From contig JAGORM010000001.1 of assembly GCA_018062815.1 (NCBI GenBank), positions 16,301-80,300 of the forward strand: a stretch of 64,000 nucleotides of DNA. Reading direction: 5' to 3'. Made by a program: the position numbers and the translations under genes. The stretch is from Candidatus Levyibacteriota bacterium. GTDB taxonomy: Bacteria > Patescibacteriota > Microgenomatia > Levybacterales > GWA1-39-11. Shown here piece by piece: positions 10,249 to 39,723 of the stretch. Positions within the stretch are counted from its first letter, which is position 1; each line of letters starts with the position of its first letter. Under the pieces are notes generated by a model. That model was not told the origin of the DNA and made no database searches. It worked only from the letters and a program-made list of their open reading frames with translations.

Positions 10249-13200
10249 ATGAATGAAAGATTGTTGCCACAAGAATTGACAGCGGGAAGGGTATCTTCTA
10301 CACTTAATGTAAGGAGTACTATGCCAGAACCACAGAAAGAAGAATTCAATATTCCCAAAAAAATTGATAGACAGCCACTTGTTGCGGGAAGTACTTCTCC
10401 TCGTCCAGAAACTATGCAGGAGCTTATGCGTGGGCAGGCAGAACGTGAGGCAGCCCGTGCCATAGTGGAGGAGGCCAGGAAACAAGGAAAATCATTGTCT
10501 GAGGATCAAAAAAAGATTGTTTTTGAATCTGGTTTTAAACCAACTATTTATGGAGGTGCTGATGTTCCTGAGAATGATGACTATAATCCAGACAATGGAG
10601 AAGGTGAGGAAAATCAGAGGCCAGAGGTTGCAAGAAGGGGTTTTGAATTGAGACCTCCACGAGGTGTAGCTGCCGACAAACAACTTCTTGATGAAATAGA
10701 AAAATTTAATAATGTCAGTGAATTAGGTGTTGATTTTGATGATCTTAAACGCGAGGCTGAAAAAATTATGGATCTTCAGTCCTCAGACCCAAACAACCCA
10801 ATTACGTCAGAGCAAAAACAGGACCTGATAAGACAGCTTTCAAAAAAAGGACAAGAAATAGCGGCGGCAAGAATGAATAACCCGGATAGATTTGGGTTTT
10901 ATCTTGAAACGCAGGATTTGCGTGAATTAGATAGTGACCCTATGTCATGGTTAGATTCTCAATTCGGTCAAATATACGACTTGTCTAAGGCGGGAAGTGA
11001 GTTGGATTCTCCTATTTTGCAACGTGTACAGACAGAGGTGGGAGAGGCATCCGCTTATCTTCAGAAAAAATTTGGAAAATTCAGAAAAGAAGGAATAGAA
11101 AATGCAGCAGACATTGAGCGCGCAAATAGAGAGAGTAAGTTGCTACTAGAGTTTAATGAAACGTTTGCTATCAGGTTAAACCTTATTTTTGCAAGAACGG
11201 CAATTGACCAAAGGGGTATGGAGCAAATACAGGGAGCGGTAGGAAGGCTAAGGACATTAGGATTTGCAGGAGCGCAAGCTTTTGATAACGGGGCAGTTGG
11301 CGCTATGTATAACCGTATGGAAGCGATGCTTGGAAACTTGCGACTAGCTGAGGGAGGGCGTGAGCATCATCTTAACCCTGCATCCTTAAACAAGCTGCAG
11401 GATAAAACTATAGATGAGCAGATAGAGCTTGCAAAAAAGGGAGTAGGCATATTTGCAGGTAAATATAAAGAGATCTTATCAGATCCAAAAAAGCAGAATA
11501 ATGCTGATGATGTTTTAAAGCGGGAGATTACCAGATCAGTTAGAACGGCTTATGACATTTTAGTTGTATCTCAGAGAGTTGCAATTGTTGCTGCGAGGGG
11601 TAATTTTAGAGGAGACAGACAGCAGTACTTTTCTGATAACGGAGGAGCATTTGCAGTATTCAATTTAGAGCAAATGACAATTAACAAGTGGGATTTATTA
11701 AATCATGAAGAGCAGGAGTTCTTTGATTTTCTCAAGCTTGACATGGCAATTAATAATAAAAAGGGGATAGATGTCTCAAAGCTAACACGTGAACAATTGT
11801 TGGATTTAGGGGGGAGATTGTTTAGGGATTTATATGTGGTTCCTGATTTTTATTCATCCTCATGGAGAATGAATGGAATGAGAGACCAATTGGGGCGTGT
11901 AATTCAATATAAAGCGGAGAACGATAAAATGATTGAAAAGTTTATCGAAAGTTCTAATTTTACTCCGGCTGATGAAAATCTCAGAAGTTTGCAGGAGCAA
12001 ATGAGGACACAGATCCAGAATTACATGCAGGTATGGGATGAACTGAACCCTGTGCAGGGAAGGGTACAGGGAGACAGGGAAATAGCACAAAGACAAATTT
12101 CCCGTCAGATGTTTGAGAAGACCTTAACGCGTGAGCAAAGAGAGTTATGCCTTAATACACTTACACAGGATGAGAAGGCGAATGTTTTAAACACTACAAT
12201 AAAAAAGGCTGGTACACAATTAGGGAAAGAGATTGGAGATTTTGCCTTATTTGTACAGCTAAAACAGAGCTTGGGGCATTTAGGGCACAATGCTGGTTCA
12301 GCGCAGGAAATAAAGGATTATAGAGCTGGGGTTTGGGGAAAGATTCAAAAATTTAAAACAGAAGATATTATGCAGTTGATAAGAGGCCGGGCACGACCGG
12401 ATATATATACGGAAGACTACAATAATCTACGTGAGTTGTATACTCTTTTTGAGAGAAACGATTCAGAATTGGGGATATTAACAAATGAGCAAAAAGAATT
12501 GCAAAAAACGGGGGGGATAGAGGCATTTCATACATATGATAAATTTATTGAGAAATATGGGTCTGTAATACAGGCAATACGTCAAGATGCGATGCGAAAC
12601 GGTTTAACCGGTCCAGAGCAGGTAGATATGGCTAACTTAAGCCCTCGACATGTGGAGATGGTGAACAGAATGTTAGGAGGGAATGGGGCAGCGGTTACTC
12701 TCCAAAATATTTATAAGGACATGAATGGGTTTATAAATCGTCATAATATTATTAATGATTTTGTTACAAGTCAAAAGTATATAGATCTTTACAATAGAGT
12801 AATAAACGTAGAGGATGTAATGCTCGACACTCTTGAATCAATACCTGAAAATGCAGGATTCCAGAAGTTGTCAGAGTATTTTACTGCAGAATCAGGGGCA
12901 GATGCTTTGAAACGCAATTTTAATGATATAGGAAATGCAGTTAATGCAGGAAACGCATTCATTAAATTTGTTACAACTGAAGATAAGGAGGGCAGATTTA
13001 AAGAATCCAAAGCTATGAAAAGCGCTGTGGAGGCATATAATGGTCGTACAAATGGAGCTGAAGTTATGCGATTTACTTACGGGACAGAATTGTTATACGC
13101 AACTCAATATTATTGGATTAACACCTTGCGTTTAGGCGCACTGCCATTCAGAAAGCCAAGCTCCATGAAGCAGGAGCATTATGGTATTGGTGCAAAGTCT

Positions 13201-13434
13201 TTGACACGACAAGATGTACGAGGGGATTTGGATCATCATAAAACAGAATTTGTAGGGCGCGGATCCGATGCTGATAAGTGGTTTCTTCAACTGGAGGAGT
13301 TGACGGGAACAGATATGAAGTCCACAATGAAAAGAAACGCGCTAACGCTTTTGATATACGCGTTTTTAGGGATTGTTATAGGAGCTCCGGTAGGTGCAGC
13401 CTCCGCAGCATTAGCAGGAGCACAGAAAGGATAA
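10249..13434 (+). CDS. Giant (1061 aa) mostly helical hypothetical protein with a C-terminal TM anchor
   Basis: ORF track; divergent from the regulator gene. Disordered acidic N-terminus, no enzymatic motif. C-terminal LTLLIYAFLGIVIGAPVGAASAALAGA helix. Confidence 0.5.
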   Translation: MNERLLPQELTAGRVSSTLNVRSTMPEPQKEEFNIPKKIDRQPLVAGSTSPRPETMQELMRGQAEREAARAIVEEARKQGKSLSEDQKKIVFESGFKPTIYGGADVPENDDYNPDNGEGEENQRPEVARRGFELRPPRGVAADKQLLDEIEKFNNVSELGVDFDDLKREAEKIMDLQSSDPNNPITSEQKQDLIRQLSKKGQEIAAARMNNPDRFGFYLETQDLRELDSDPMSWLDSQFGQIYDLSKAGSELDSPILQRVQTEVGEASAYLQKKFGKFRKEGIENAADIERANRESKLLLEFNETFAIRLNLIFARTAIDQRGMEQIQGAVGRLRTLGFAGAQAFDNGAVGAMYNRMEAMLGNLRLAEGGREHHLNPASLNKLQDKTIDEQIELAKKGVGIFAGKYKEILSDPKKQNNADDVLKREITRSVRTAYDILVVSQRVAIVAARGNFRGDRQQYFSDNGGAFAVFNLEQMTINKWDLLNHEEQEFFDFLKLDMAINNKKGIDVSKLTREQLLDLGGRLFRDLYVVPDFYSSSWRMNGMRDQLGRVIQYKAENDKMIEKFIESSNFTPADENLRSLQEQMRTQIQNYMQVWDELNPVQGRVQGDREIAQRQISRQMFEKTLTREQRELCLNTLTQDEKANVLNTTIKKAGTQLGKEIGDFALFVQLKQSLGHLGHNAGSAQEIKDYRAGVWGKIQKFKTEDIMQLIRGRARPDIYTEDYNNLRELYTLFERNDSELGILTNEQKELQKTGGIEAFHTYDKFIEKYGSVIQAIRQDAMRNGLTGPEQVDMANLSPRHVEMVNRMLGGNGAAVTLQNIYKDMNGFINRHNIINDFVTSQKYIDLYNRVINVEDVMLDTLESIPENAGFQKLSEYFTAESGADALKRNFNDIGNAVNAGNAFIKFVTTEDKEGRFKESKAMKSAVEAYNGRTNGAEVMRFTYGTELLYATQYYWINTLRLGALPFRKPSSMKQEHYGIGAKSLTRQDVRGDLDHHKTEFVGRGSDADKWFLQLEELTGTDMKSTMKRNALTLLIYAFLGIVIGAPVGAASAALAGAQKG

Positions 13435-16026: not shown

Positions 16027-16080
16027 TGTTGACAGGATAAATATAGTGTCTTACCATAGTTTTTGGCACTAAATATGGTT
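16027..16080 (+). promoter_or_regulatory. Putative promoter (TTGACA -35) overlapped by two NrdR-box-like palindromic half-sites spaced 32 bp apart
   Basis: Box 1 at 16033-16048 (aggATAAATATAGTGT) and box 2 at 16065-16080 (gCACTAAATATgGTtT), compared with the NrdR box consensus acaCwAtATaTwGtgt. TTGACA at 16027-16032. Confidence 0.4.
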
Positions 16081-16139: not shown

Positions 16140-16589
16140 ATGCATTGTCCATATTGTACAAGTCAGGAAACAGAAGTAGTTGAAACAAGAGTAGGTGAGG
16201 ACGGCACAAATATCAGACGCAGAAGAACATGTGCCAGTTGTCAAAAACGCTTCACAACATACGAAAGAATAGAGAACATACCATTAATTGTTAAGAAAAA
16301 AGACGGGAAACGGGAACAGTTTGACCGGGATAAATTGCAGAAGGGAATGATCACGGCAACACAAAAAACAACAGTTACAGTTGTAAACATAACACAAATC
16401 GTAGATGAAATAGAACGGGAACTAAGGGGAGGAGAAAGCGTTGAAATTGAAAGTAAAAAGATAGGGCAATTAGTTGCAGCTAAACTTAAAAAAATAGATA
16501 AAATAGCTTATATTAGGTTTTCAAGCGTTTTTAGACAGTTTGTAGATTTAGAAGATTTTCAAAAAGAATTACAAAAGCTAATAAAATGA
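16140..16589 (+). CDS. nrdR: Transcriptional repressor NrdR (zinc ribbon + ATP-cone)
   Basis: MHCPYCTSQETEVVETRVGEDGTNIRRRRTCASCQKRFTTYERIE... is the canonical NrdR N-terminus. The gene overlaps the nrdJ start. Confidence 0.9.
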   Translation: MHCPYCTSQETEVVETRVGEDGTNIRRRRTCASCQKRFTTYERIENIPLIVKKKDGKREQFDRDKLQKGMITATQKTTVTVVNITQIVDEIERELRGGESVEIESKKIGQLVAAKLKKIDKIAYIRFSSVFRQFVDLEDFQKELQKLIK

Positions 16590-19033
16590 CACAACTTACA
16601 GGACTTTCACAAAAAGTATTCATGGATCGGTATTCCTTAAAAGATAAGGAAGGTAATCCGGTTGAGAAAACCCCAGAAGAAATGTGGAGACGAGTTGCCC
16701 GTGGGATCGCGGAAGTAGAGCCTCAGGATAAAAGAGCCGAATGGAGAAAGAAATTCTATAATGTAATGAAAGACTTTAAGTTTCTGCCAGGAGGTCGTAT
16801 TTTTGCGGGGGCAGGAACCGGGTATGACGTTACTTATTATAATTGTTTTGTTATCCCAAGTCCTAAAGATTCAAGAGACGGAATATTAGATAATCTTAAG
16901 TCTATGATAGAGATTATGGCGCGTGGCGGAGGCGTAGGTCTTAATCTTTCATCTTTACGCCCTCGTGGGGCACGAGTTAAAAAGGTAAACGGTTTTTCAT
17001 CAGGCCCTATCAACTGGGCAGAACTATATTCCCTTGCAACAAAAGACATAGTCCAACAGGGTGGTTCCAGGCGCGGTGCTCTTATGCTCATGCTTCATGA
17101 TTGGCACCCTGACATAGAAGAATTTATTACTGTAAAACAGGATTTAACTCGTATAAATGGGGCAAATCTTTCCGTTTGTGTTTCTGATGCGTTTATGGAG
17201 GCAGTCAAAAAAGATGCAGACTGGGATTTGTTATACCCAGATCTAGATGATCCTCTCTATGATTCTCATTGGGATGGGAACCTGGATGAATGGAAGAAGC
17301 TTGGAGGAAAGGTAAAAGTGCAGAAAACCATTAAGGCAGCAGAGCTATGGAACCTCATTTGTGAGGCGGCTTGGCGATCAGCAGAGCCAGGCCTCCACTT
17401 TTTAGAGAGATCCAATAAAAGATCAAATACATACTATTTTGAGAAGCTTATCGCAACTAATCCTTGCGGAGAGCAGCCGTTATCTGCATGGGCGGTCTGT
17501 AATTTAGGCGCTATGAATCTGGTGGCTTATGTAAAAAATGAGAAATTTGATTATGAAACTTTCGGTGAAGATGTAAAGGTTGCAATGCGATTTCTGGATG
17601 ATGTTATTGATTCAACGTATTACTTCCTCCCTGAAAATGAAAAATGCGCAAAAGATATACGTAGAACTGGTCTTGGGATAATGGGATTAGGAGATGCATT
17701 AATCATGATGAAGTTAAGATACGGCGCAGAAGAATCTCTTCCGGTAATTGAAAAAATCTTTAAAACTCTTCGGGATAACGCATATGTTGCTTCATCGGAC
17801 ATAGCAAAAGAAAAAGGATCATTCCCTATGTTTAACCGTGAAAAATACCTAGAAGGTTATCACATTAAAGCACTTCCAAAACAAATCCGTGATAGAATTT
17901 CCAAAAATGGAATTAGAAATGCTGTGCTATTAACAATTGCTCCAACGGGTACAACAAGTCTTTTAGCGGGAACTACATCAGGGATAGAACCGGTGTATGA
18001 ATTTGAATTTGTTAGACGCTCTAAATTGGGAATAGATAGGTTGTATCATCCGCTCTATGACCAGTGGAGAAAAGATCATCCGGAAGAAAAGCGTCCATCA
18101 TACTTTGTATCCGCAAATGATCTTGCCCCTATGGATCATGCAAAGGTTCAGGCGATTGCACAGCAATACATAGACTCTTCAATCTCAAAGACCGTAAATG
18201 CTCCCAACGCTCATACTATTGATGATGTAAAAACGCTTTATATGGCAGCATATGATTTGGGTATGAAGGGAATTACCTATATGAGAGATGGATCACGTCA
18301 GGGAGTTTTATCCCGGGAAGAAAAGAAAGAGGAGCTGCCTGCAGGTGAGGCAGGGAAAAAGGAGGACTCAGTAGTTGTTCCTCCTGCAAAGTCTCCTATT
18401 CTCCGCCGCCCTATGGTAATGCGCGGGTTAACTTATAAAACACAAACCCCATTGGGAGATGCATTTGTAACCATAAACAGCGATGACAATAATAATCCAT
18501 TTGAGATGTTTGTAACTATTGGGAAATCTGGATCGGATGTAGCTGCTATGGCTGATGCGTTAGGAAGAATTATTTCATTAGTATTACGTCTTCAAAGCCC
18601 AGTTGATTCCCGTGAGCGTGTCAGGCAGATTATTGCGCAGCTTTCAGGGATTGGCGGAGTGCGTTCTGTTGGGTTTGGTCCTAATAGGGTTAGGTCAGTT
18701 CCAGATGCTATGGCAAAAGTGCTTGCTGAAGAGTTTGAATTTAAGGTGAATGGAAGAGTGGTAGATTCACCTAAAACCGCGACCCCTGCTGATGCAGCGC
18801 CAACTACAGCTAATGGTGGAGCAAGCTTGAGCGCTACTGGAACACCAGTCATTAATGCTGATGCAGTAAGTAAACCGTCACAAGAGGCAAAAATTGCAAC
18901 AGTTGAGCAGTTGCCTTTGGAGGCAGCAGAAACGCATTCTCATGCAGACGTATGTCCGCAATGTGGGGTAGCTTCATTTGTTCATGAAGAAGGATGTTCC
19001 AAATGCTACTCTTGTGGTCATGCCGAATGTTAA
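16586..19033 (+). CDS. nrdJ: Class II (adenosylcobalamin-dependent) ribonucleotide reductase
   Basis: ATNPCGEQPLSAWAVCNLGAMNL active-site region and a C-terminal Cys-rich tail (CPQCG...CSKCYSCGH), typical of NrdJ. Confidence 0.85.
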   Translation: MTQLTGLSQKVFMDRYSLKDKEGNPVEKTPEEMWRRVARGIAEVEPQDKRAEWRKKFYNVMKDFKFLPGGRIFAGAGTGYDVTYYNCFVIPSPKDSRDGILDNLKSMIEIMARGGGVGLNLSSLRPRGARVKKVNGFSSGPINWAELYSLATKDIVQQGGSRRGALMLMLHDWHPDIEEFITVKQDLTRINGANLSVCVSDAFMEAVKKDADWDLLYPDLDDPLYDSHWDGNLDEWKKLGGKVKVQKTIKAAELWNLICEAAWRSAEPGLHFLERSNKRSNTYYFEKLIATNPCGEQPLSAWAVCNLGAMNLVAYVKNEKFDYETFGEDVKVAMRFLDDVIDSTYYFLPENEKCAKDIRRTGLGIMGLGDALIMMKLRYGAEESLPVIEKIFKTLRDNAYVASSDIAKEKGSFPMFNREKYLEGYHIKALPKQIRDRISKNGIRNAVLLTIAPTGTTSLLAGTTSGIEPVYEFEFVRRSKLGIDRLYHPLYDQWRKDHPEEKRPSYFVSANDLAPMDHAKVQAIAQQYIDSSISKTVNAPNAHTIDDVKTLYMAAYDLGMKGITYMRDGSRQGVLSREEKKEELPAGEAGKKEDSVVVPPAKSPILRRPMVMRGLTYKTQTPLGDAFVTINSDDNNNPFEMFVTIGKSGSDVAAMADALGRIISLVLRLQSPVDSRERVRQIIAQLSGIGGVRSVGFGPNRVRSVPDAMAKVLAEEFEFKVNGRVVDSPKTATPADAAPTTANGGASLSATGTPVINADAVSKPSQEAKIATVEQLPLEAAETHSHADVCPQCGVASFVHEEGCSKCYSCGHAEC

Positions 19034-19822: not shown

Positions 19823-21199
19823 ATGAACTATGAATTGGGAAAAACTATTGAACCTTATGCGCAATACAGGCAAAGGTATAACGTTGCGTCTCCTGTTAGG
19901 TTTCAGGAAAAAGAACTAAAAAGACAAGGAAATTTAACTAAAAGCGAAGCTGAACCTCAAATTCCGTTTCTTGCGCATGCTATTGATGAAATAAAAAATC
20001 AGGGTACGAAAGCGTTTTATATGCTCCCAGATACAGGCTTTCAGGTTCAAACTCAGGTGGATCTATTAATAGAAAACTATAAATCAGGAGTGCCTCTTTC
20101 CGAGTCACTAGCTCAAGTTCATCAAGATATTCATCATTTTAAAATAGAGTATTTGGTTGAACAGCCTGTCTTTGCTATTCCGCTAGAATTCGCAGAGTAT
20201 GAGGGGGAAAAGAGGTTGGTGGGCAATTTCTATAACGGCAAGCCATTAGTGGACGCGACCAGTAAAGAAGAGAGGCATGGTGTGGTAAAGGAAATGGTAA
20301 AGAAAGTAGAAGACCATTTGAAAGATGCTAAGCCGGGAGCGGGAGCAATGTTTATAAGCGGAAACGGGTGGAGTGGGTACGAGGGTATTGAGTATCCCGA
20401 TGCGCAGACATACTGCTATCAAGTACAGAAAGACGGAAGTATCAGAAGCTTTACCTTAAAGACAGATCTTAATATCTCTCAAAACGAAGAAGTTATGCGG
20501 CGGTTAGGGGTTTCTTCAGACGCTTTTTCTGCTGAAGTAGACGATAAAAATAGAGTTAAGCGGCTTTTAAGAAATGGACTATTTTTTGATTCAAAAGATG
20601 ATATAACCACTGAAAATATAGCTAAAACATTAATGCAAGTTAAAGGAATAAATGTGGCCTATAAAGATTCTATGGGGAAAGCACGGACTTTTACAGAGAT
20701 GTTTGATCTTTTGAAAAACCCAGACCCATTATTAAGCATAGAGGATAAGCAAAAAAAATTAACTGATGTTTTAGATAACTATATAGAGCATAGGCTGGGT
20801 AATTTTGACACCCAAACAGAAGAAGATATAAAAATTGCATTGGGATATACAATTCTTTCTCTAATGCATGAGGTTCGACCTAGCCAAAAAGATAAAAAAA
20901 TGCATGAAGGCATAGGGTATAGTGCCTCAAGAAGTGCCCTTGTCTCTTTGTCACCGCAGAATATGCTCTTTGAACTTCAGCAAATTGGTGGGTGTGCGGG
21001 TGGCGGAAAGAAGAATAAGTCAATCGTTGACTCTTTAACGCCTAGAATAGGAAATAATATGCTCGATTTAAATCAGGAATGGTTTACTTGTCCTAAATGC
21101 TCATATAAAGCAGATGGTCCTATTGGTAATACTTGTCCTGGGTGTAATCTTACAAAAGAAGATTATGCCTCAGAGGAAGGAGTAATTGTTTGTGACTAA
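19823..21199 (+). CDS. Hypothetical protein with a C-terminal zinc ribbon (CPKCSYK...CPGCN)
   Basis: ORF track; no recognisable catalytic motif. Confidence 0.45.
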   Translation: MNYELGKTIEPYAQYRQRYNVASPVRFQEKELKRQGNLTKSEAEPQIPFLAHAIDEIKNQGTKAFYMLPDTGFQVQTQVDLLIENYKSGVPLSESLAQVHQDIHHFKIEYLVEQPVFAIPLEFAEYEGEKRLVGNFYNGKPLVDATSKEERHGVVKEMVKKVEDHLKDAKPGAGAMFISGNGWSGYEGIEYPDAQTYCYQVQKDGSIRSFTLKTDLNISQNEEVMRRLGVSSDAFSAEVDDKNRVKRLLRNGLFFDSKDDITTENIAKTLMQVKGINVAYKDSMGKARTFTEMFDLLKNPDPLLSIEDKQKKLTDVLDNYIEHRLGNFDTQTEEDIKIALGYTILSLMHEVRPSQKDKKMHEGIGYSASRSALVSLSPQNMLFELQQIGGCAGGGKKNKSIVDSLTPRIGNNMLDLNQEWFTCPKCSYKADGPIGNTCPGCNLTKEDYASEEGVIVCD

Positions 21200-24109: not shown

Positions 24110-25912
24110 TTACATCTCCACAGAATAAACGGTGTTATCTGAGACTATATAGATTTTTTTATCCTTTTCGTCTGCCGCAATTGATTTTGGATTTTTCAGA
24201 CCTGAAAGAGGAATTTCTAACACGGGATTTCCACTTTTATCTATTATGTATACAATTTTCTTTTCGGGGTCGAGTATGTATAAATTTGTGTAATCTATGT
24301 CTGTGTAAATGGTAGACGTTGTAGATAGGGGTTTACCTTTATAATTAAAACTGTCTTCCTTCCCTCTGGTATATTTTTTTATAGATCCATTTGCTAGTAC
24401 ATAAATTGATGAGTCAATTGCAAAACTTGAAGGATTTTGAATTGTTGTATCATTTGTAAAATATGCTGCTTTGCTAAAGCTATCAGGAAGATATTTGTAA
24501 ATTGTCTTGTCTGTCTTTGAGAGCAGGTAGATATTTCCTCCAAAAGTATCAATTGAAATAGGGCCTGCCTGCTTTTGAATTATAGTATCTGATTCGCCAT
24601 TCTCTTTTGTGATCTGATTAACCGTTTCTCCATCCAGAATATAGACATTTTCCTCATCTGCTGTAACCCCGTGAGCAGAGTCTGCGCCGTTAAATGTCGT
24701 ATCAACTGATCCGTCAGGTTTTAATAATCCTCCCTTTGTAGGTCCAATTACTGCAATCCCTCCCCCCTTTGCTGTTATGTATTTAACGCTGGGAATTTCT
24801 GTATTTTTTCTGGCATCAAAAAAGATATTTATTCTTGATTTTCCTCCTGATACTTCACCTCCCAAAGCTTTATTCACGTTCTGCAAAAAAGAATCAAGAG
24901 TTTTCCTGGCATTACTTTCTTGCGGGAATTGGGGTAGCTTGCTTTCAACATTTGATTTTATTTCTGTCAATTCTTCTATTGCTAGACTTTTATTTAAGCT
25001 CATAAGTGCAACAGCATCTTCATACTTTTGTTTGTTTTCAGAAAGAACTAATTGTGCCTGTTCTTCCATGTGTGCGTTCTCTTTTCCTGTTTTTTCAAGA
25101 AATATACTTATTCCCAGAACTACAAATAAAAATAAAACGCAAACAATAATAAGTTGTTTTTTTGAAAGCCTTTTAAGGGATGGAAATTTTACCCTCTTAA
25201 CTATTCCTTCCAAATTGAATTTAGGCATTAGTATTTTTTTTTCTTTGTCTTCTGTATCATTTGTAAGGTCAAGGGTGTCGTTATCAGGCACAGACTCATT
25301 TTCTTCAATTACTTTTCTTTCTCCTATCATGTTCCAAATTAAAGCAGCCTCTTTTCCCGTTGGCTCATCGTGAATAAAAGGTGCAATTGACTCACTTATG
25401 TTGTGAGGGGTACCTGCGCCTAATGACTTTTCAATTTCATCTGATGAGACTGTTGAAAGTAAGCCTTCAGTTGCAACTAAAATAATATCTTCAGGTTCAA
25501 CATTCCCTGAAAAGCCGGTTGTCTTGTTGCTTTCTCCAGTTGCAATGATTGTTGTTTTTCCGTCACGTCGCAATAAAACACTGCCTGAATGAGCAATTAT
25601 TATATAAAGTGTTGTATTGACTATGGTTGTCAAGACAAGTGATAAGGATACATTTTCTGCTAGCTCGCCTACAACTGTTTCCACTGCTTTTTTGAGTGTT
25701 TCTAGATTTTTTTCATCCAATGCAAAAAACTCTCGCTGTAAACGCTCCAGGGTATCTTTTCCCAATGAAGCAATTGTTTCCTTACCTTCTTCATGAAGAC
25801 TTATGACAAGATGTAGCTTGCCCGCGCTATAAGCCTGTGCCCAAGAAGATGAGGTGGCTGTTGCGACTACTTTAGCAACTGGGGAAGAATGTTCCATTAC
25901 TCCATTATACAA
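24110..25912 (-). CDS. Membrane-anchored protein: N-terminal PP2C-like (possibly degenerate) domain, TM, coiled coil, C-terminal beta-propeller-like repeats
   Basis: IIIAHSGSVLLRRDGKTTIIATGE and DIILVATEGLLSTVSSDEI resemble the PP2C motifs GDSR.../SDGL... but lack the canonical Asp residues. TM LIIVCVLFLFVVLGISIFL. Repeats of Y/F-x-DG/N-S in the C-terminal half. Confidence 0.35.
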   Translation of the reverse strand: MYNGVMEHSSPVAKVVATATSSSWAQAYSAGKLHLVISLHEEGKETIASLGKDTLERLQREFFALDEKNLETLKKAVETVVGELAENVSLSLVLTTIVNTTLYIIIAHSGSVLLRRDGKTTIIATGESNKTTGFSGNVEPEDIILVATEGLLSTVSSDEIEKSLGAGTPHNISESIAPFIHDEPTGKEAALIWNMIGERKVIEENESVPDNDTLDLTNDTEDKEKKILMPKFNLEGIVKRVKFPSLKRLSKKQLIIVCVLFLFVVLGISIFLEKTGKENAHMEEQAQLVLSENKQKYEDAVALMSLNKSLAIEELTEIKSNVESKLPQFPQESNARKTLDSFLQNVNKALGGEVSGGKSRINIFFDARKNTEIPSVKYITAKGGGIAVIGPTKGGLLKPDGSVDTTFNGADSAHGVTADEENVYILDGETVNQITKENGESDTIIQKQAGPISIDTFGGNIYLLSKTDKTIYKYLPDSFSKAAYFTNDTTIQNPSSFAIDSSIYVLANGSIKKYTRGKEDSFNYKGKPLSTTSTIYTDIDYTNLYILDPEKKIVYIIDKSGNPVLEIPLSGLKNPKSIAADEKDKKIYIVSDNTVYSVEM

Positions 25913-28590: not shown

Positions 28591-28635
28591 AACAATTTTT
28601 ATCTATTCTTACAACCAGGGGGAAGAAATTGTGGG

Positions 28636-28707
28636 TGGGCGCGGCAGGATTTGAACCTGCGACCAATTGTGTATAAGACAACCGCTCTACCACTGAGCTA
28701 CACGCCC
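28636..28707 (-). tRNA. tRNA with anticodon UAU (tRNA-Ile reading AUA)
   Basis: Reverse complement GGGCGTG-TA-GCTC-AGTGGT-AGAGC-G-GTTGT-CTTATAC-ACAAT-TGGTC-GCAGG-TTCAAAT-CCTGC-CGCGCCC-A forms a cloverleaf. The 7-nt anticodon loop is CU-UAU-AC. No encoded CCA. Confidence 0.75.
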
Positions 28708-28762
28708 AAAAAGGAAACTGTGGTAAATTATAGCACGAGAAAGGAAAATATTCGATTCGTAA

Positions 28763-31195
28763 TTATATAAGGCCGCCGTTGCCGCCACCTAGCTTATCTC
28801 CTCCGGGGTTACCAAATGGATCTTCACCTCCTGGACCTAAATCACCAAATACTTCAAATAATTTAGAACGTTTTGCTATTTCAGCCTCAACTAATTCTTT
28901 TGGCTTTCCGTATTTTAGCCTGGATAGCTCCTTAACTAATTCAGCGACCCTAGGGTTTGCCATTTTTCGTTCAGCTTCAATATCTCGAGTAAGATCCATT
29001 GAGAATGGTGGAGCGGGCTCATTTTTGATAACAGTTTTAACATATGCGTGACGTGCCTCAATATTTATCAGATCAGCTTCGGTAAAGGTTGGCTGAAATT
29101 CATGTTGCAGATAATTTGCATCAGATACGCCTACTCGGAATGATACAATAGTTCCGACGTTTCCAAAAATAGCATTTTTAATTTCCTCCTCAATTTGCCC
29201 TATGAATTGGTTTGCAACTATTAGGTTTAATCTATATTTTCTTGCCTCAGAGAGTATTTGCGCAAAATCAGGCGTTGCAAAATTTTGAAACTCATCTACA
29301 TAAAGGAAAAAATCGCGCCTTTGTTCCTGCGGAATATCTTGTCTACTCATAGCAGCAACGAGTATTTTGGGAACCAGTATAAGTCCAAGAAAGTTTGAGT
29401 TTTCTTCACCGATTTTCCCTTTGGCAAGCGAGATAAGAAGAATTTTACCCTCATCCATTGAGCGTCTAAAATTAAAAGATGAGTCAGATTGACCGATCAT
29501 ATTTCTCATCATGGTGTTTGTAACAAATCTTCCAAATTTTGAAGTAATATAATCTAATACTTCAGATTTATGAAAGTCAGAAGTTTGTGCTATCTGATCA
29601 GTCCAGTAGCGTCTGATAATAGGATCTTTTACTTTAGGGAGAAGTTCCTGGACAAAATTTTGATCAGTTAAGACGCGCATAACCTCCACAAATGTATTCC
29701 CCGGCTCGGACATAACGGTAAGCATAGCATTTCTTACAGCGTGCTCAAATCTAGGGCCTATGATACCTGTTTGATGTGGATCAAAGAGCTTATACATGAG
29801 CCCTATAATGGATGTTACCACCAAATGTTTTTGTTCTTCTGTTTGAGCCTCAAGCATATTTAGTCCCATTGGCCGTTCTGTGTCTGATGGATCAAAAAGT
29901 ATTACGTCTTCTGCGCGTTCAGGCGGAATTAGTGGCAAGATTAAATCAATTGTGTCATGAGGGTCAATAAAGCAGACTCCGTGCCCTGCCTTAATATCTT
30001 GCAGTATCATATCTTTTAGAAATTCAGATTTTCCTACACCTGTTTTCCCGACTATATACATATGTCTTCGTCTGTCGTCTTCCCCTATATATATGGGTTT
30101 TGAATTTCCCCTGTATTCACTTTTTCCAATATACAGTCCGGTTGTAGGAATACTTGCAGGTGCAGGGGCACTGCGGGCAGCTAGCCAGTGAATATGTGGG
30201 CTTTCAACAGACTTATTCGGAAAGTGGAAGATAGTCGCAAGTTCATCAACGGAAAGGACTGAACCTTTTTTGAGAAGAGGAAGTGTTCTGTAAATAAAAT
30301 CCACCATAAACATTCCCTTGAAATACTTCATTTTTTCCTTGGAGAAAGAATTGTATGAGGAGAATTGAGTAAATGAGGTAACCATATTTTCCAAATGCGC
30401 ATTTGCTGCTTCTTTTGAAGATGATGAGACAACAAGTCTTATATAAGTGTTGAAAGCAGGTTTTGACAGTTTTCCCTCTATTGCCTCCAATTCCTTTTGG
30501 TCAACTGAATATTTTGCTGTTTCAGGATTTGCCTCTCTTTTTTTAATGCCTGTTATATGTGCACGCCCCTGTTTTTTCCATTTCCCGTCAGTAGGAGTAA
30601 TAAGTATTTGGATAGCAGCAGATTCGCCTTCCTGCATTTTCCCAAGAGTTGAAACCATTGTTGACATTGGGTCAACAGGAAGTTGCTGAAAAGATTTTAT
30701 TGGAATATAAGGGGAAGATTTTAAAACAAGTCCTGCAAATGCTACCTTACTTTCATCTGAGAAAATATCATATTCTTCAGCAGGTGAAATACTCGCGTCG
30801 GGATATGCACCGTGGATTTGTTTTTCAACCATATCTTCCAACTTCTTAGGTATTGATACGTAAAACCTGATATCTCCTGTTTTAGCAACTATTTCAAATG
30901 CTATATAATCAGGTACTTTTGAAAATCCCAGTAATCCCTTTGCTCCTTTTATTCCAGAAAACGCCGAAAACATTTGTTCTGCAGCATCTATCTTTATTTC
31001 ATTCTCTCGGGGTAGTTGTACTTCAAGCAAGACCATATCAAGAGCCTTTTTCTGTCTTTCGCGGTTTTTCTTCCAAAAAAGATATGCGACATATATTCCT
31101 AAGACTGCAAATACAATCAAGCTTGTGAGGAGGATTCCTATAGCAAGAACAAAAAGAAGCGTTATGATGTTGTTTACAATGTCTACCCCTGTCAT
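28763..31195 (-). CDS. Membrane-anchored FtsK/HerA/TrwB-superfamily ATPase; type IV coupling protein (VirD4/TraG)-like
   Basis: N-terminal TM. Walker A IVGKTGVGKSEF, Walker B FFLYVDEFQNF, then SEARKYRLNLIVANQFIGQI (the arginine-finger/Q-rich motif of T4CP/HerA-type ATPases). Gly-rich C-terminal tail. Confidence 0.5.
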   Translation of the reverse strand: MTGVDIVNNIITLLFVLAIGILLTSLIVFAVLGIYVAYLFWKKNRERQKKALDMVLLEVQLPRENEIKIDAAEQMFSAFSGIKGAKGLLGFSKVPDYIAFEIVAKTGDIRFYVSIPKKLEDMVEKQIHGAYPDASISPAEEYDIFSDESKVAFAGLVLKSSPYIPIKSFQQLPVDPMSTMVSTLGKMQEGESAAIQILITPTDGKWKKQGRAHITGIKKREANPETAKYSVDQKELEAIEGKLSKPAFNTYIRLVVSSSSKEAANAHLENMVTSFTQFSSYNSFSKEKMKYFKGMFMVDFIYRTLPLLKKGSVLSVDELATIFHFPNKSVESPHIHWLAARSAPAPASIPTTGLYIGKSEYRGNSKPIYIGEDDRRRHMYIVGKTGVGKSEFLKDMILQDIKAGHGVCFIDPHDTIDLILPLIPPERAEDVILFDPSDTERPMGLNMLEAQTEEQKHLVVTSIIGLMYKLFDPHQTGIIGPRFEHAVRNAMLTVMSEPGNTFVEVMRVLTDQNFVQELLPKVKDPIIRRYWTDQIAQTSDFHKSEVLDYITSKFGRFVTNTMMRNMIGQSDSSFNFRRSMDEGKILLISLAKGKIGEENSNFLGLILVPKILVAAMSRQDIPQEQRRDFFLYVDEFQNFATPDFAQILSEARKYRLNLIVANQFIGQIEEEIKNAIFGNVGTIVSFRVGVSDANYLQHEFQPTFTEADLINIEARHAYVKTVIKNEPAPPFSMDLTRDIEAERKMANPRVAELVKELSRLKYGKPKELVEAEIAKRSKLFEVFGDLGPGGEDPFGNPGGDKLGGGNGGLI

Positions 31196-31979: not shown

Positions 31980-32064
31980 GGAGAGGTCGCATAGTGGCCT
32001 AGTGCAGCGGTTTACTAAACCGCCGTATCGCAAGATACCGAGAGTTCGAATCTCTCCCTCTCCG
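31980..32064 (+). tRNA. Class II Ser-type tRNA (G73, long variable arm) with the unusual anticodon ACU
   Basis: GGAGAGG-TC-GCA-TAGTGGCCTAG-TGC-A-GCGGT-TTACTAA-ACCGC-C-GTATC-GCAA-GATAC-C-GAGAG-TTCGAAT-CTCTC-CCTCTCC-G. The anticodon stem has 5 Watson-Crick pairs; loop positions 34-36 are A-C-U. Followed by a T-run. Confidence 0.6.
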
Positions 32065-32106
32065 CATTTTTTTTAATTTCCTCGTTTTTTGGTATAATCC
32101 CCTTTC

Positions 32107-37982: not shown

Positions 37983-38048
37983 GCTAAACCCCTGATTTTA
38001 GAAGTGCGGGTTGAAGATTGTCGTAATTTTCCTGCATAATAATATAAT

Positions 38049-38870
38049 ATGATGACTTTAAAGGTTGTAAAAAGAAACGGAGAGTTGGAGCCATATAGTG
38101 AAGAAAAAGTAATCCACACTATGAACCGCGTAGGTGTTCCTCCTAATATTCAGCCAGATGTTTTAAGTCATGTACGCGATCAATTCAAGGGTGATTACAT
38201 TACAACAGACGAGATATTTAAGCATGTATTTGAATACTTAAAAAAAATAGATAAAAAGGCAAGTCTCAGGCTTAATTTACGTAGGGCAATCACTGATTTG
38301 GGGCCAACAGGATTTCCTTTTGAAAAATATCTTGCCCGTATTTTTCAAGATCAGGGGTATAAAACTACAGTAGATGCGCATTTAAAGGGCGAGTGTGTTA
38401 ATCATGAAGTAGATATCATCTTAGAGAAGGACGGAAAGCGAGATATAGTGGAAGTAAAATTCCATAACGATCTTCAAGGTAAAACAGATCTTCATGTCGC
38501 CCTCTACACTTATGCTCGTTATTTAGATCTTAAAACAAAACATCAGATTGATAATGTTTGGATAATTACAAATACAAAACTAAGCCAAGATGCAGTAATC
38601 TATGCACAATGTAAAAATATGAAAATTTTGGCATGGAATTACCCATCGGAGAATCACCTGCAACATTTTGTGGAATCTCCCAAGATGTATCCAATAACTA
38701 TTCTTACGGACCTTACAAGAGAAGAAAAACTAAGACTTATTGATGACAATTTAGTATTATGTAGAGACCTTTTTGCCTTATCAGAGCAAGAAGTTGAAAG
38801 TTTTCCTTATGTGAAGCGCTCACATTTAGCACGAGCACGGGAGAATGCAAGATTACTATTAAATAGTTAG
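38049..38870 (+). CDS. ATP-cone domain fused to an Mrr-type (PD-(D/E)xK) restriction-endonuclease-like domain
   Basis: N-terminus LKVVKRNGELEPYSEEKVIHTMNRVG matches the ATP-cone. Middle region FEKYLARIFQDQGYK...NHEVDIILEKDGKRDIVEVKFH matches the Mrr_cat D...E-x-K core. Confidence 0.6.
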   Translation: MMTLKVVKRNGELEPYSEEKVIHTMNRVGVPPNIQPDVLSHVRDQFKGDYITTDEIFKHVFEYLKKIDKKASLRLNLRRAITDLGPTGFPFEKYLARIFQDQGYKTTVDAHLKGECVNHEVDIILEKDGKRDIVEVKFHNDLQGKTDLHVALYTYARYLDLKTKHQIDNVWIITNTKLSQDAVIYAQCKNMKILAWNYPSENHLQHFVESPKMYPITILTDLTREEKLRLIDDNLVLCRDLFALSEQEVESFPYVKRSHLARARENARLLLNS

Positions 38871-38980: not shown

Positions 38981-39442
38981 ATGTTAAATTTTTTTACAAA
39001 AGTATTCCTTCACGGTATAGCATATGCACATTGTGATATCCCTTGCGGAATATATGATCCAAATGGTGCGCAGTTAGCAGCGCATACTGTGCTTAGAATG
39101 ACACAGTTATTAGCAGAGAAAACTGATACTCATGACATAGCAAGAATTACTCATACTAAAGAAAAGCACGGTGAGGCAGTAGAGGAAGAATTGGGTACTC
39201 TTGAGAATGATTATTTTAAGACGGAGCATTTTGAACAATTCCCGGAATTAAATAGTCTATTGTCTGATGCGGTAAAGTTATCCATTGAAACACGTCAGCA
39301 TGTAGATAAACAGAAAGCAGAGGATTTACTTGAGAAGGTTTTACAAATTTCAGAAATCTTTTATAAAACAAAGAACGTAACTCCATTAAGGGTTCCTTCT
39401 GTGTATCCGACAAAAGGAGAGATCGTAATTTATACCGCATGA
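38981..39442 (+). CDS. sodN: Nickel superoxide dismutase precursor
   Basis: 16-aa propeptide followed by HCDIPCGIYDP, the Ni-hook motif (His-Cys-x-x-Pro-Cys-Gly-x-Tyr). Confidence 0.85.
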   Translation: MLNFFTKVFLHGIAYAHCDIPCGIYDPNGAQLAAHTVLRMTQLLAEKTDTHDIARITHTKEKHGEAVEEELGTLENDYFKTEHFEQFPELNSLLSDAVKLSIETRQHVDKQKAEDLLEKVLQISEIFYKTKNVTPLRVPSVYPTKGEIVIYTA

Positions 39443-39723
39443 TTCTAGGTTTATTCCAAATAACAGGTCACAGCATGGAGCCTGGCCTTAAAAAAGGTGA
39501 TAGCGTGCTTGCTTTGGGCATATTTTCTGTTAAAAAAGGTGATGTGATTATTTTTCAAAAAGATTCAAAGTATTTTGTAAAAAGGGTAGCGGAAATAATG
39601 GGGAATAAAGTAAAAGTTCTAGGGGATAACCCTGAAGACAGTTTTGATAGTCGCAATTTTGGGGAAATTGAAAAAGATGTTATTATAGGAAAAGTAATAA
39701 AAAAAATAAAATGGTTTTTTTAA
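39439..39723 (+). CDS. sodX: NiSOD maturation protease (S26 signal-peptidase-like)
   Basis: QITGHSMEPGLKKGD Ser-nucleophile motif and ...KRVAE (Lys). Overlaps the sodN stop codon. Confidence 0.75.
   Translation: MILGLFQITGHSMEPGLKKGDSVLALGIFSVKKGDVIIFQKDSKYFVKRVAEIMGNKVKVLGDNPEDSFDSRNFGEIEKDVIIGKVIKKIKWFF

Follow-up and report, generated by a model that had tools for sequence, protein, structure and literature searches.

The window analysed in this work is the whole stretch of 64,000 nucleotides of Candidatus Levyibacteriota DNA, and the gene studied here (the target) is a complete open reading frame at positions 38049–38870 of the + strand, which encodes 273 amino acids (AA) followed by a stop codon. 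Homologues begin within a few residues of the same position, and the GC content of the gene (0.33–0.35) is that of its flanks. The encoded protein is composed of three domains. The ATP-cone (AA 4–82, 38058–38294, +) consists of a beta-hairpin carrying V6, K8, R9, G11 and E14, followed by helices. A hinge, L84-G85-P86-T87-G88-F89-P90-F91-E92 (38298–38324, +), joins the last helix of the cone to helix alpha-1 of a PD-(D/E)xK nuclease core of the Mrr_cat type (AA 88–196, 38310–38636, +), and the C-terminal AF1548-like_C domain (AA 204–273, 38658–38867, +) has a helix–hairpin–helix (HhH)/SAM-like fold. The preliminary description of this DNA had recognized the fusion of an ATP-cone with an Mrr-like PD-(D/E)xK nuclease, which is confirmed here by the Pfam match of the nuclease, by AlphaFold2 combined with Foldseek and by comparison of the family profile with a NrdR cone; it had overlooked the third domain, which is likely a non-specific DNA-binding module.

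In Pfam, Mrr_cat (PF04471) matches AA 88–193 with 32 bits for a gathering score of 21 (E = 1.4e-7), the ATP-cone (PF03477) matches AA 5–72 with 25.7 bits, just under its gathering score of 25.8, and AF1548-like_C matches AA 214–249 weakly. In NCBIfam the sole match is to NrdR, far under its cut-off, and is accounted for by the cone. Many relatives carry a precomputed PF03477 match, and the family profile aligns with the NrdR cone encoded in the same genome with a probability of 93% (E = 3e-7). The AlphaFold2 model of the target, built on a 44-sequence family alignment, is confident (pLDDT 95.6, pTM 0.90). When this model was used in Foldseek, the first match was 1Y88, the structure of Archaeoglobus fulgidus AF1548 (TM 0.84), followed by the ATP-cones of NrdR (24–29% identity with NrdR chains) and of ribonucleotide reductases (RNRs); with its N-terminal beta-hairpin and helical bundle, the cone of the target is superposable on both. 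A sequence search of the PDB likewise matched AF1548 over AA 94–252 (E = 7e-35), and the NrdR cones weakly. For the nuclease core, the Foldseek matches included NucS, Can2, Card1, MspJI and AspBHI, and McrC and Cap4 are also structural neighbours. The fold does not decide the role of the protein, because defence enzymes (AspBHI, MspJI, Can2, Card1) are among these top neighbours.

Residue conservation was counted in the best 150 representatives of clusters formed at 50% identity. The 'D...E-V-K core' of the preliminary description corresponds to D122 (38412–38414) and E135-V136-K137 (38451–38459), and the catalytic triad is present on the alignment in every representative: E92, E120, D122, E135, K137, R157 and D160 are all invariant (150/150). 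On the alpha-beta-beta-beta-alpha-beta core, E92 is placed in alpha-1, D122 in beta-2 and E135-x-K137 in beta-3, and E92 is the predicted fourth acidic residue of the active site. The core also holds an H119-E120 and a T174-N175-T176-K177 motif. The hinge is as strongly constrained, since G85, P86, G88, F91 and E92 are found in all 150 representatives and the motif G85-P86-x-G88-(F/Y)-P-F91-E92 is essentially invariant. Outside the canonical catalytic set, C116, H119, H139 and C188 are conserved in 137–142 of the 150 representatives, the H119 position being Gln in AF1548; judging from conservation, these four residues could form a metal-binding, redox-sensitive or structural site.

Residues of the cone were matched by their spacing to V48, K50, E56, F58 and K62 of Streptomyces coelicolor NrdR. 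The NrdR contact residues V48, K50, R51, E56 and K62 correspond to V6, K8, R9, E14 and K20 of the target and are all present, and NrdR is impaired in its binding of nucleotides when V48, K50, E56 or K62 is mutated (PMC9110341). Among the 150 representatives, K8 is conserved in 149, G11 in 143, E14 in 121, F/Y16 in 147, K20 in 147, T/S53 in 148 and K/R78 in 149; the conserved cone positions of the target include K20, T53, R74 and R78. These identities make it likely that the target cone binds an adenine nucleotide. Two other NrdR residues, Y128, which senses the 2'-OH of the outer nucleotide, and R51, which binds phosphate (PMC9110341), have no conserved equivalent in the family. The R51 position, an Arg in the target (R9), is Ala or Ser in 95 of the 150 representatives, and the segment F-A-S-V-Y of Escherichia coli NrdR is matched in the alignment by R-(Y/L)-x-L-(K/R) of the family, which puts Lys/Arg78 in the place of Tyr128. 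With the 2'-OH-sensing Tyr replaced in this way, discrimination between dATP and ATP cannot be deduced by analogy with NrdR, and for the same two reasons the ligand may be other than ATP or dATP. Since the architecture is real, the nuclease triad intact and the nucleotide-binding residues defined in NrdR kept, 'candidate nucleotide-sensing nuclease', as the protein was first called, is a fair label.

Members of the AF1548 family and the truncated structure 1Y88

A phmmer search against 1.84 billion representative sequences gave 993 matches at E ≤ 0.001, of which 416 clusters (50% identity) at E ≤ 1e-30; the best 150 of these 416 representatives are all full length (262–335 AA). Scanning GTDB species genomes with a single peptide pattern derived from a 10-sequence alignment confirmed the family gene in at least 599 of them. 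Among the matches listed, the titles are overwhelmingly those of Patescibacteria (Levy-, Gottesman-, Chisholm-, Kaiser-, Yonath-, Wolfe-, Lloyd- and Uhrbacteria, Paceibacterota), with one Hadesarchaeon. Record titles are nevertheless a poor taxonomic guide: several loci (L006–L011, L015 and others) are titled 'uncultured Gammaproteobacteria' or 'uncultured Candidatus Saccharibacteria', and these GTDB metagenome-assembled genomes show synteny of the Levybacteria or Parcubacteria type, with proteins up to 93% identical to those of the window. A search with the AF1548 fragment found relatives in Archaeoglobaceae, Ferroglobus, Geoglobus, Korarchaeota and Pacearchaeota, almost all with a cone (PF03477 is carried by about 80 of 98 archaeal AF1548 relatives), and a Micrarchaeota member also exists. 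The fusion of cone and nuclease is therefore constant throughout the family, as the best 150 representatives are all full length and nearly all archaeal relatives have the cone.

The target is an ordinary member of the AF1548 family (PDB 1Y88; PF04471 and PF22357), and a bacterial (CPR) orthologue of AF1548, as its similarity to the family covers the full-length sequence and the structure, C-terminal domain included. Neither is the architecture new: relatives are named 'ATP cone domain-containing protein', 'restriction endonuclease' or 'Restriction endonuclease/ATP cone domain' in databases, NCBI among them, so that the fusion is already annotated. Our literature search found no functional study or biochemistry of an ATP-cone and nuclease fusion for any member.

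The solved AF1548 structure differs from the target in lacking the cone and the invariant GPxGFxFE segment that carries E92. Residues 23–197 of the 1Y88 chain are 99% identical to residues 91–265 of a 265-AA protein (P0271, locus L088, 6001–6798), and the first 22 residues of the chain, which end in '...H-M', do not align to this protein. From this alignment we infer that 1Y88 is made of a tag followed by residues 91–265, the AF1548 ORF that was crystallized having been N-terminally mis-started. Such a truncation would explain why AF1548 was treated as an ORFan, with only D38, E51 and K53 predicted as catalytic (PMC1821046). The sole solved structure of the family is thus devoid of the sensor and of one predicted catalytic residue, which would make a full-length structure informative.

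Genomic context, regulation signals and evolutionary mode

The gene order in the window is: a class-I methyltransferase (−), a Kelch/Peptidase_C39_2 protein (+), the target (+), SodN (+), an S26-type peptidase (+), a small methyltransferase-like protein (+), a Zn-ribbon protein, FemAB (−), UvrD (−), TIM and LytR. The neighbours are as described previously, with sodN and then its S26-type peptidase downstream, and the Kelch/Peptidase_C39_2 gene upstream. It also holds that the target has no methyltransferase partner: no DNA methyltransferase is nearby, and the class-I enzyme encoded two genes upstream is of a UbiG or small-molecule type. The two flanking methyltransferases were considered as restriction–modification (R-M) partners and rejected, one being UbiG-like and the other similar to protein-lysine methyltransferases, with no match to a DNA methyltransferase family; their PADLOC 'mad2' matches cover only the generic SAM-binding region. 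The SodN gene and the short S26/S24-type peptidase gene that follows it (38981–39723, +) overlap by 4 nt and form a pair conserved across Levybacteria loci, the peptidase being probably the SodN-maturation protease SodX.

A promoter-like site, TTGAAG-18 nt-CATAAT, was found by a consensus scan at 38011–38040 (+), ending 8 nt before the ATG of the target. The window and the two closest relatives (L001 and L006) share both hexamers but differ in the spacer; the conserved element reads TTGAAG-18-(TG)CATAAT, and a CATAAT-like box near the ATG recurs in more distant Levybacteria loci. The position of this site suggests that the target has its own promoter, with a very short leader or none (a leaderless or near-leaderless mRNA). 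The window also encodes a canonical NrdR, composed of a Zn-ribbon and an ATP-cone (16140–16589), whose gene overlaps the start of a gene for a class II-type RNR (16140–19033 for the pair, +). This RNR contains a TSCPD domain and itself lacks an ATP-cone, so that the genome has two ATP-cone proteins, NrdR and the target, neither of which is the RNR. The half-sites AAATATAGTGT and CACTAAATATGG, which resemble NrdR boxes, lie about 26 nt apart at 16041 and 16067, upstream of the nrdR–nrdJ operon, whereas no NrdR-box pair was found upstream of the target, and membership of the target in the NrdR regulon was rejected.

The neighbours of the family gene were surveyed by calling genes in 78 loci of species-representative genomes and clustering the products. 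Three conserved, clade-specific blocks emerged. Block A, in Levybacteria, is the order of the window. In block B, in Kaiserbacteria and Paceibacteria-like genomes, the family gene is preceded by a sigma70-r4/HARE-HTH gene, a gene for a 448-AA protein without assignment, YceG and MnmA, and followed by (DUF7282), MgtC, PDDEXK_1, an Ogt DNA-binding domain, UDG and AlaRS. In block C, the family gene follows DUF2079 and precedes DinB, which is encoded on the other strand. Some loci have contexts not shared with any block, such as L072 and L078, in which genes for an AMP/thymidine-phosphorylase-like enzyme and a PRPP synthase follow the family gene. The archaeal contexts are CorA and DUF389; MscS and a PHP protein; an amino-acid permease, MerR, TiaS and Hjc; and Pur_DNA_glyco and rubredoxin. 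No operon partner conserved across clades was found in the 78 loci and the archaeal loci, the contexts being clade-specific. A gene of the MgtC family lies directly after the family gene in 24 of the 78 loci and at the second position in 5 more (for example L018, 6830–7321), the gene of the Mg2+ transporter CorA abuts the family gene in Ferroglobus placidus (L086, 4958–6001), and in Archaeoglobus the gene of an MscS channel overlaps its start. The Mg2+-transport neighbours could reflect plain synteny or a link to Mg2+/ATP homeostasis.

DNA repair genes are found within five genes of the family gene in about five independent contexts (PDDEXK_1/Ogt/UDG; DinB; UvrD/NUDIX; Pur_DNA_glyco; Hjc). By a rough estimate, which is not a formal test, this association is marginally above chance; the signal is weak, because the small genomes of the CPR are crowded with housekeeping genes, none of the partners recurs from one clade to another, and transporters make up most of the archaeal neighbours.

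The gene order of the window is kept in relatives whose target proteins are 93, 63, 56 and 53% identical. In these four relatives the corresponding values are 94, 77, 64 and 62% for UvrD and 86, 59, 59 and 54% for FemAB, so that the identity of the target tracks that of these two neighbours; it exceeds that of TIM and SodN at the larger distances. A rough neighbour-joining tree, built without support values, separates archaeal, Parcubacteria-type and Microgenomates-type groups and broadly follows taxonomy. Each locus has one copy of the family gene, and a search of 2.9 million viral contigs found none. The synteny, the housekeeping-like rate, the taxonomic shape of the tree and the lack of a copy in these viral contigs together argue for a vertically inherited, single-gene housekeeping function.

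A candidate nucleotide-gated endonuclease and the competing explanations

Starting from the observed architecture, intact motifs, family breadth, synteny and evolutionary rate, we infer that the protein binds a ligand and acts as a nuclease, and also how the two would be coupled, in which direction regulation would run and what the substrate would be. The reading that we favour, with modest confidence, is that the target is a catalytically competent member of the AF1548 family with a housekeeping function, a DNA endonuclease that depends on Mg2+, is gated by adenine nucleotides and likely acts in genome maintenance, not in defence. The nucleotide would sit in the pocket of the beta-hairpin and first helix (K8, E14, Y16, K20). 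In the cones of RNRs and NrdR, the hairpin and the last helices move in a nucleotide-dependent manner and the oligomeric state changes (PMC9110341), and by analogy nucleotide binding at AA 4–82 would move the last helix of the cone and alter the oligomeric state of the protein. Since the invariant GPxGFPFE hinge connects this helix directly to helix alpha-1 of the nuclease, where E92 is located, nucleotide occupancy would complete or disrupt the active site formed by E92, D122, E135 and K137. Coupling might instead come from the protein alternating between a dimeric and a higher oligomeric state. The HhH-like C-terminal domain would hold duplex DNA, and RNA may also be a substrate.

The most likely role for such an enzyme would be genome maintenance (DNA repair, processing or turnover) tied to ATP or dNTP status. 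We favour this role because repair genes are nearby in about five contexts and because NucS is among the nearest characterized folds. NucS/EndoMS is the archaeal and actinobacterial endonuclease that repairs mismatches and deaminated bases; the target shares only 15–17% identity with it, a likeness of nearest fold and not membership, and NucS/EndoMS has a different N-terminal domain, for DNA binding and dimerization, a PCNA/clamp motif, and neither a cone nor an HhH domain.

A broader proposal, which we put forward tentatively and which is more probably wrong than right, is that the members of the AF1548 family form, besides RNRs and NrdR, a third functional class among the proteins with an ATP-cone, as a core genome-maintenance endonuclease of CPR bacteria and several archaeal lineages that is licensed or blocked by the adenine-nucleotide or dNTP pool. 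To our knowledge, nearly all studies of ATP-cones have dealt with their role in switching RNRs and the repressor NrdR on and off. In the AF1548 family the cone is connected with the active site of a nuclease; the family evolves under strong purifying selection and extends over the CPR and several archaeal groups, organisms in which the function of many conserved genes is not known. Should the cone gate the nuclease, this allosteric module would have a new output, one that directly links the nucleotide pool to DNA cutting; and if the third-class proposal is true, DNA incision, for repair or for a controlled turnover of DNA, is directly coupled to the supply of building blocks or energy in organisms of minimal metabolism.

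Three other explanations compete with a maintenance endonuclease. In the first, which we consider improbable, the protein degrades imported or own DNA or RNA when adenylate or dATP is low, so as to feed the salvage of nucleotides or of pentose bisphosphate. Such salvage would be of use to those CPR and DPANN organisms in which de novo synthesis of nucleotides is missing, and the family is concentrated in the CPR, with DPANN members (Micrarchaeota, Pacearchaeota); the ATP-cone is a natural sensor of the pool, and in L072 and L078 the next two genes are those of the phosphorylase-like enzyme and PRPP synthase. However, this adjacency occurs in one context only, the family is also present in free-living Archaeoglobales and in Korarchaeota, the genome studied here encodes NrdR and, for the synthesis of dNTPs, a class II RNR, and an Mrr-like endonuclease makes breaks, not mononucleotides.

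The preliminary description had suggested a defence function, triggered when phage infection perturbs the dNTP pool, and it had called for a survey of homologues for association with defence islands. An anti-phage or type IV-like restriction nuclease, responding to a perturbed dNTP/ATP pool, does fit some features of the protein: type IV enzymes have Mrr_cat as their catalytic domain, a sensor domain joined to a PD-(D/E)xK effector is a common layout in defence, the structural neighbours AspBHI, MspJI, McrC, Can2, Card1 and Cap4 are ligand-gated or modification-dependent defence nucleases, and the relative at locus L005 adjoins a BglII-type R-M pair. That pair is incidental; no DNA methyltransferase, R-M or defence gene recurs in the 78 loci, where synteny is kept in the core genome of at least three clades. 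PADLOC gave no significant match for the target, its best being to the generic Cas4 nuclease model Cas4_II (E = 4e-4, 18.8 bits), and for the window neighbours, UvrD included, it gave only generic domain matches. Mrr and the type IV enzymes AspBHI and MspJI differ from the target in that it has no Mrr_N or SRA-like reader of modified DNA, the cone occupying the reader's place, and in that it is conserved and syntenic, not patchily distributed in variable islands. The effectors that join a CARF or SAVED domain to a nuclease (Can2, Card1, Cap4) follow a similar sensor–nuclease logic, but they read cyclic oligonucleotides made by a partner cyclase of the defence operon, whereas the target has an ATP-cone, a metabolic rather than immune sensor, no partner and a housekeeping context. 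Together with the UvrD- and FemAB-like divergence, the single copy per locus, the tree that tracks taxonomy and the viral contigs devoid of the family, these observations do not bear out the defence function, and the target is unlikely to be a restriction or phage-defence gene.

Finally, that the target is a non-catalytic DNA-binding regulator, an analogue of NrdR whose nuclease fold and HhH domain would serve only to bind DNA as directed by a nucleotide, has very little to recommend it: NrdR does switch DNA binding with the same cone (PMC9110341), JGI names one relative 'NrdR family', and the target weakly matches the inactive-REase family NA-iREase1 (E = 0.013), but all catalytic residues are invariant in the 150 representatives, the target has an intact nuclease as its output instead of the DNA-box reader of NrdR, lacks the Zn-ribbon and scores 15.3 bits against TIGR00244 for a cut-off of 124.65, and the canonical NrdR at 16140–16589, with its box-like sites, is already present in the window.

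Other features of the window

ORFs at 10249–13434 (+, 1061 AA), 19823–21199 (+, 458 AA) and 24110–25912 (−, 600 AA) have no Pfam match at E ≤ 0.001. An 810-AA protein encoded at 28763–31195 (−) shows weak signatures of coupling ATPases of the TraG/TrwB/HerA type (DUF8128 in the 93%-identical relative) and is conserved in that relative, beside a SpoIID-domain protein; it may be a component of type IV secretion or DNA translocation in a CPR genome. ARAGORN detected a tRNA-Ile with anticodon TAT at 28632–28708 (−) and a tRNA-Ser with anticodon ACT at 31980–32065 (+), the latter adjoining a tRNA-Ser(GCT) on the other strand. The anticodons TAT (Ile) and ACT (Ser) are unusual in bacteria, in which A34 and U34-Ile tRNAs are rare.
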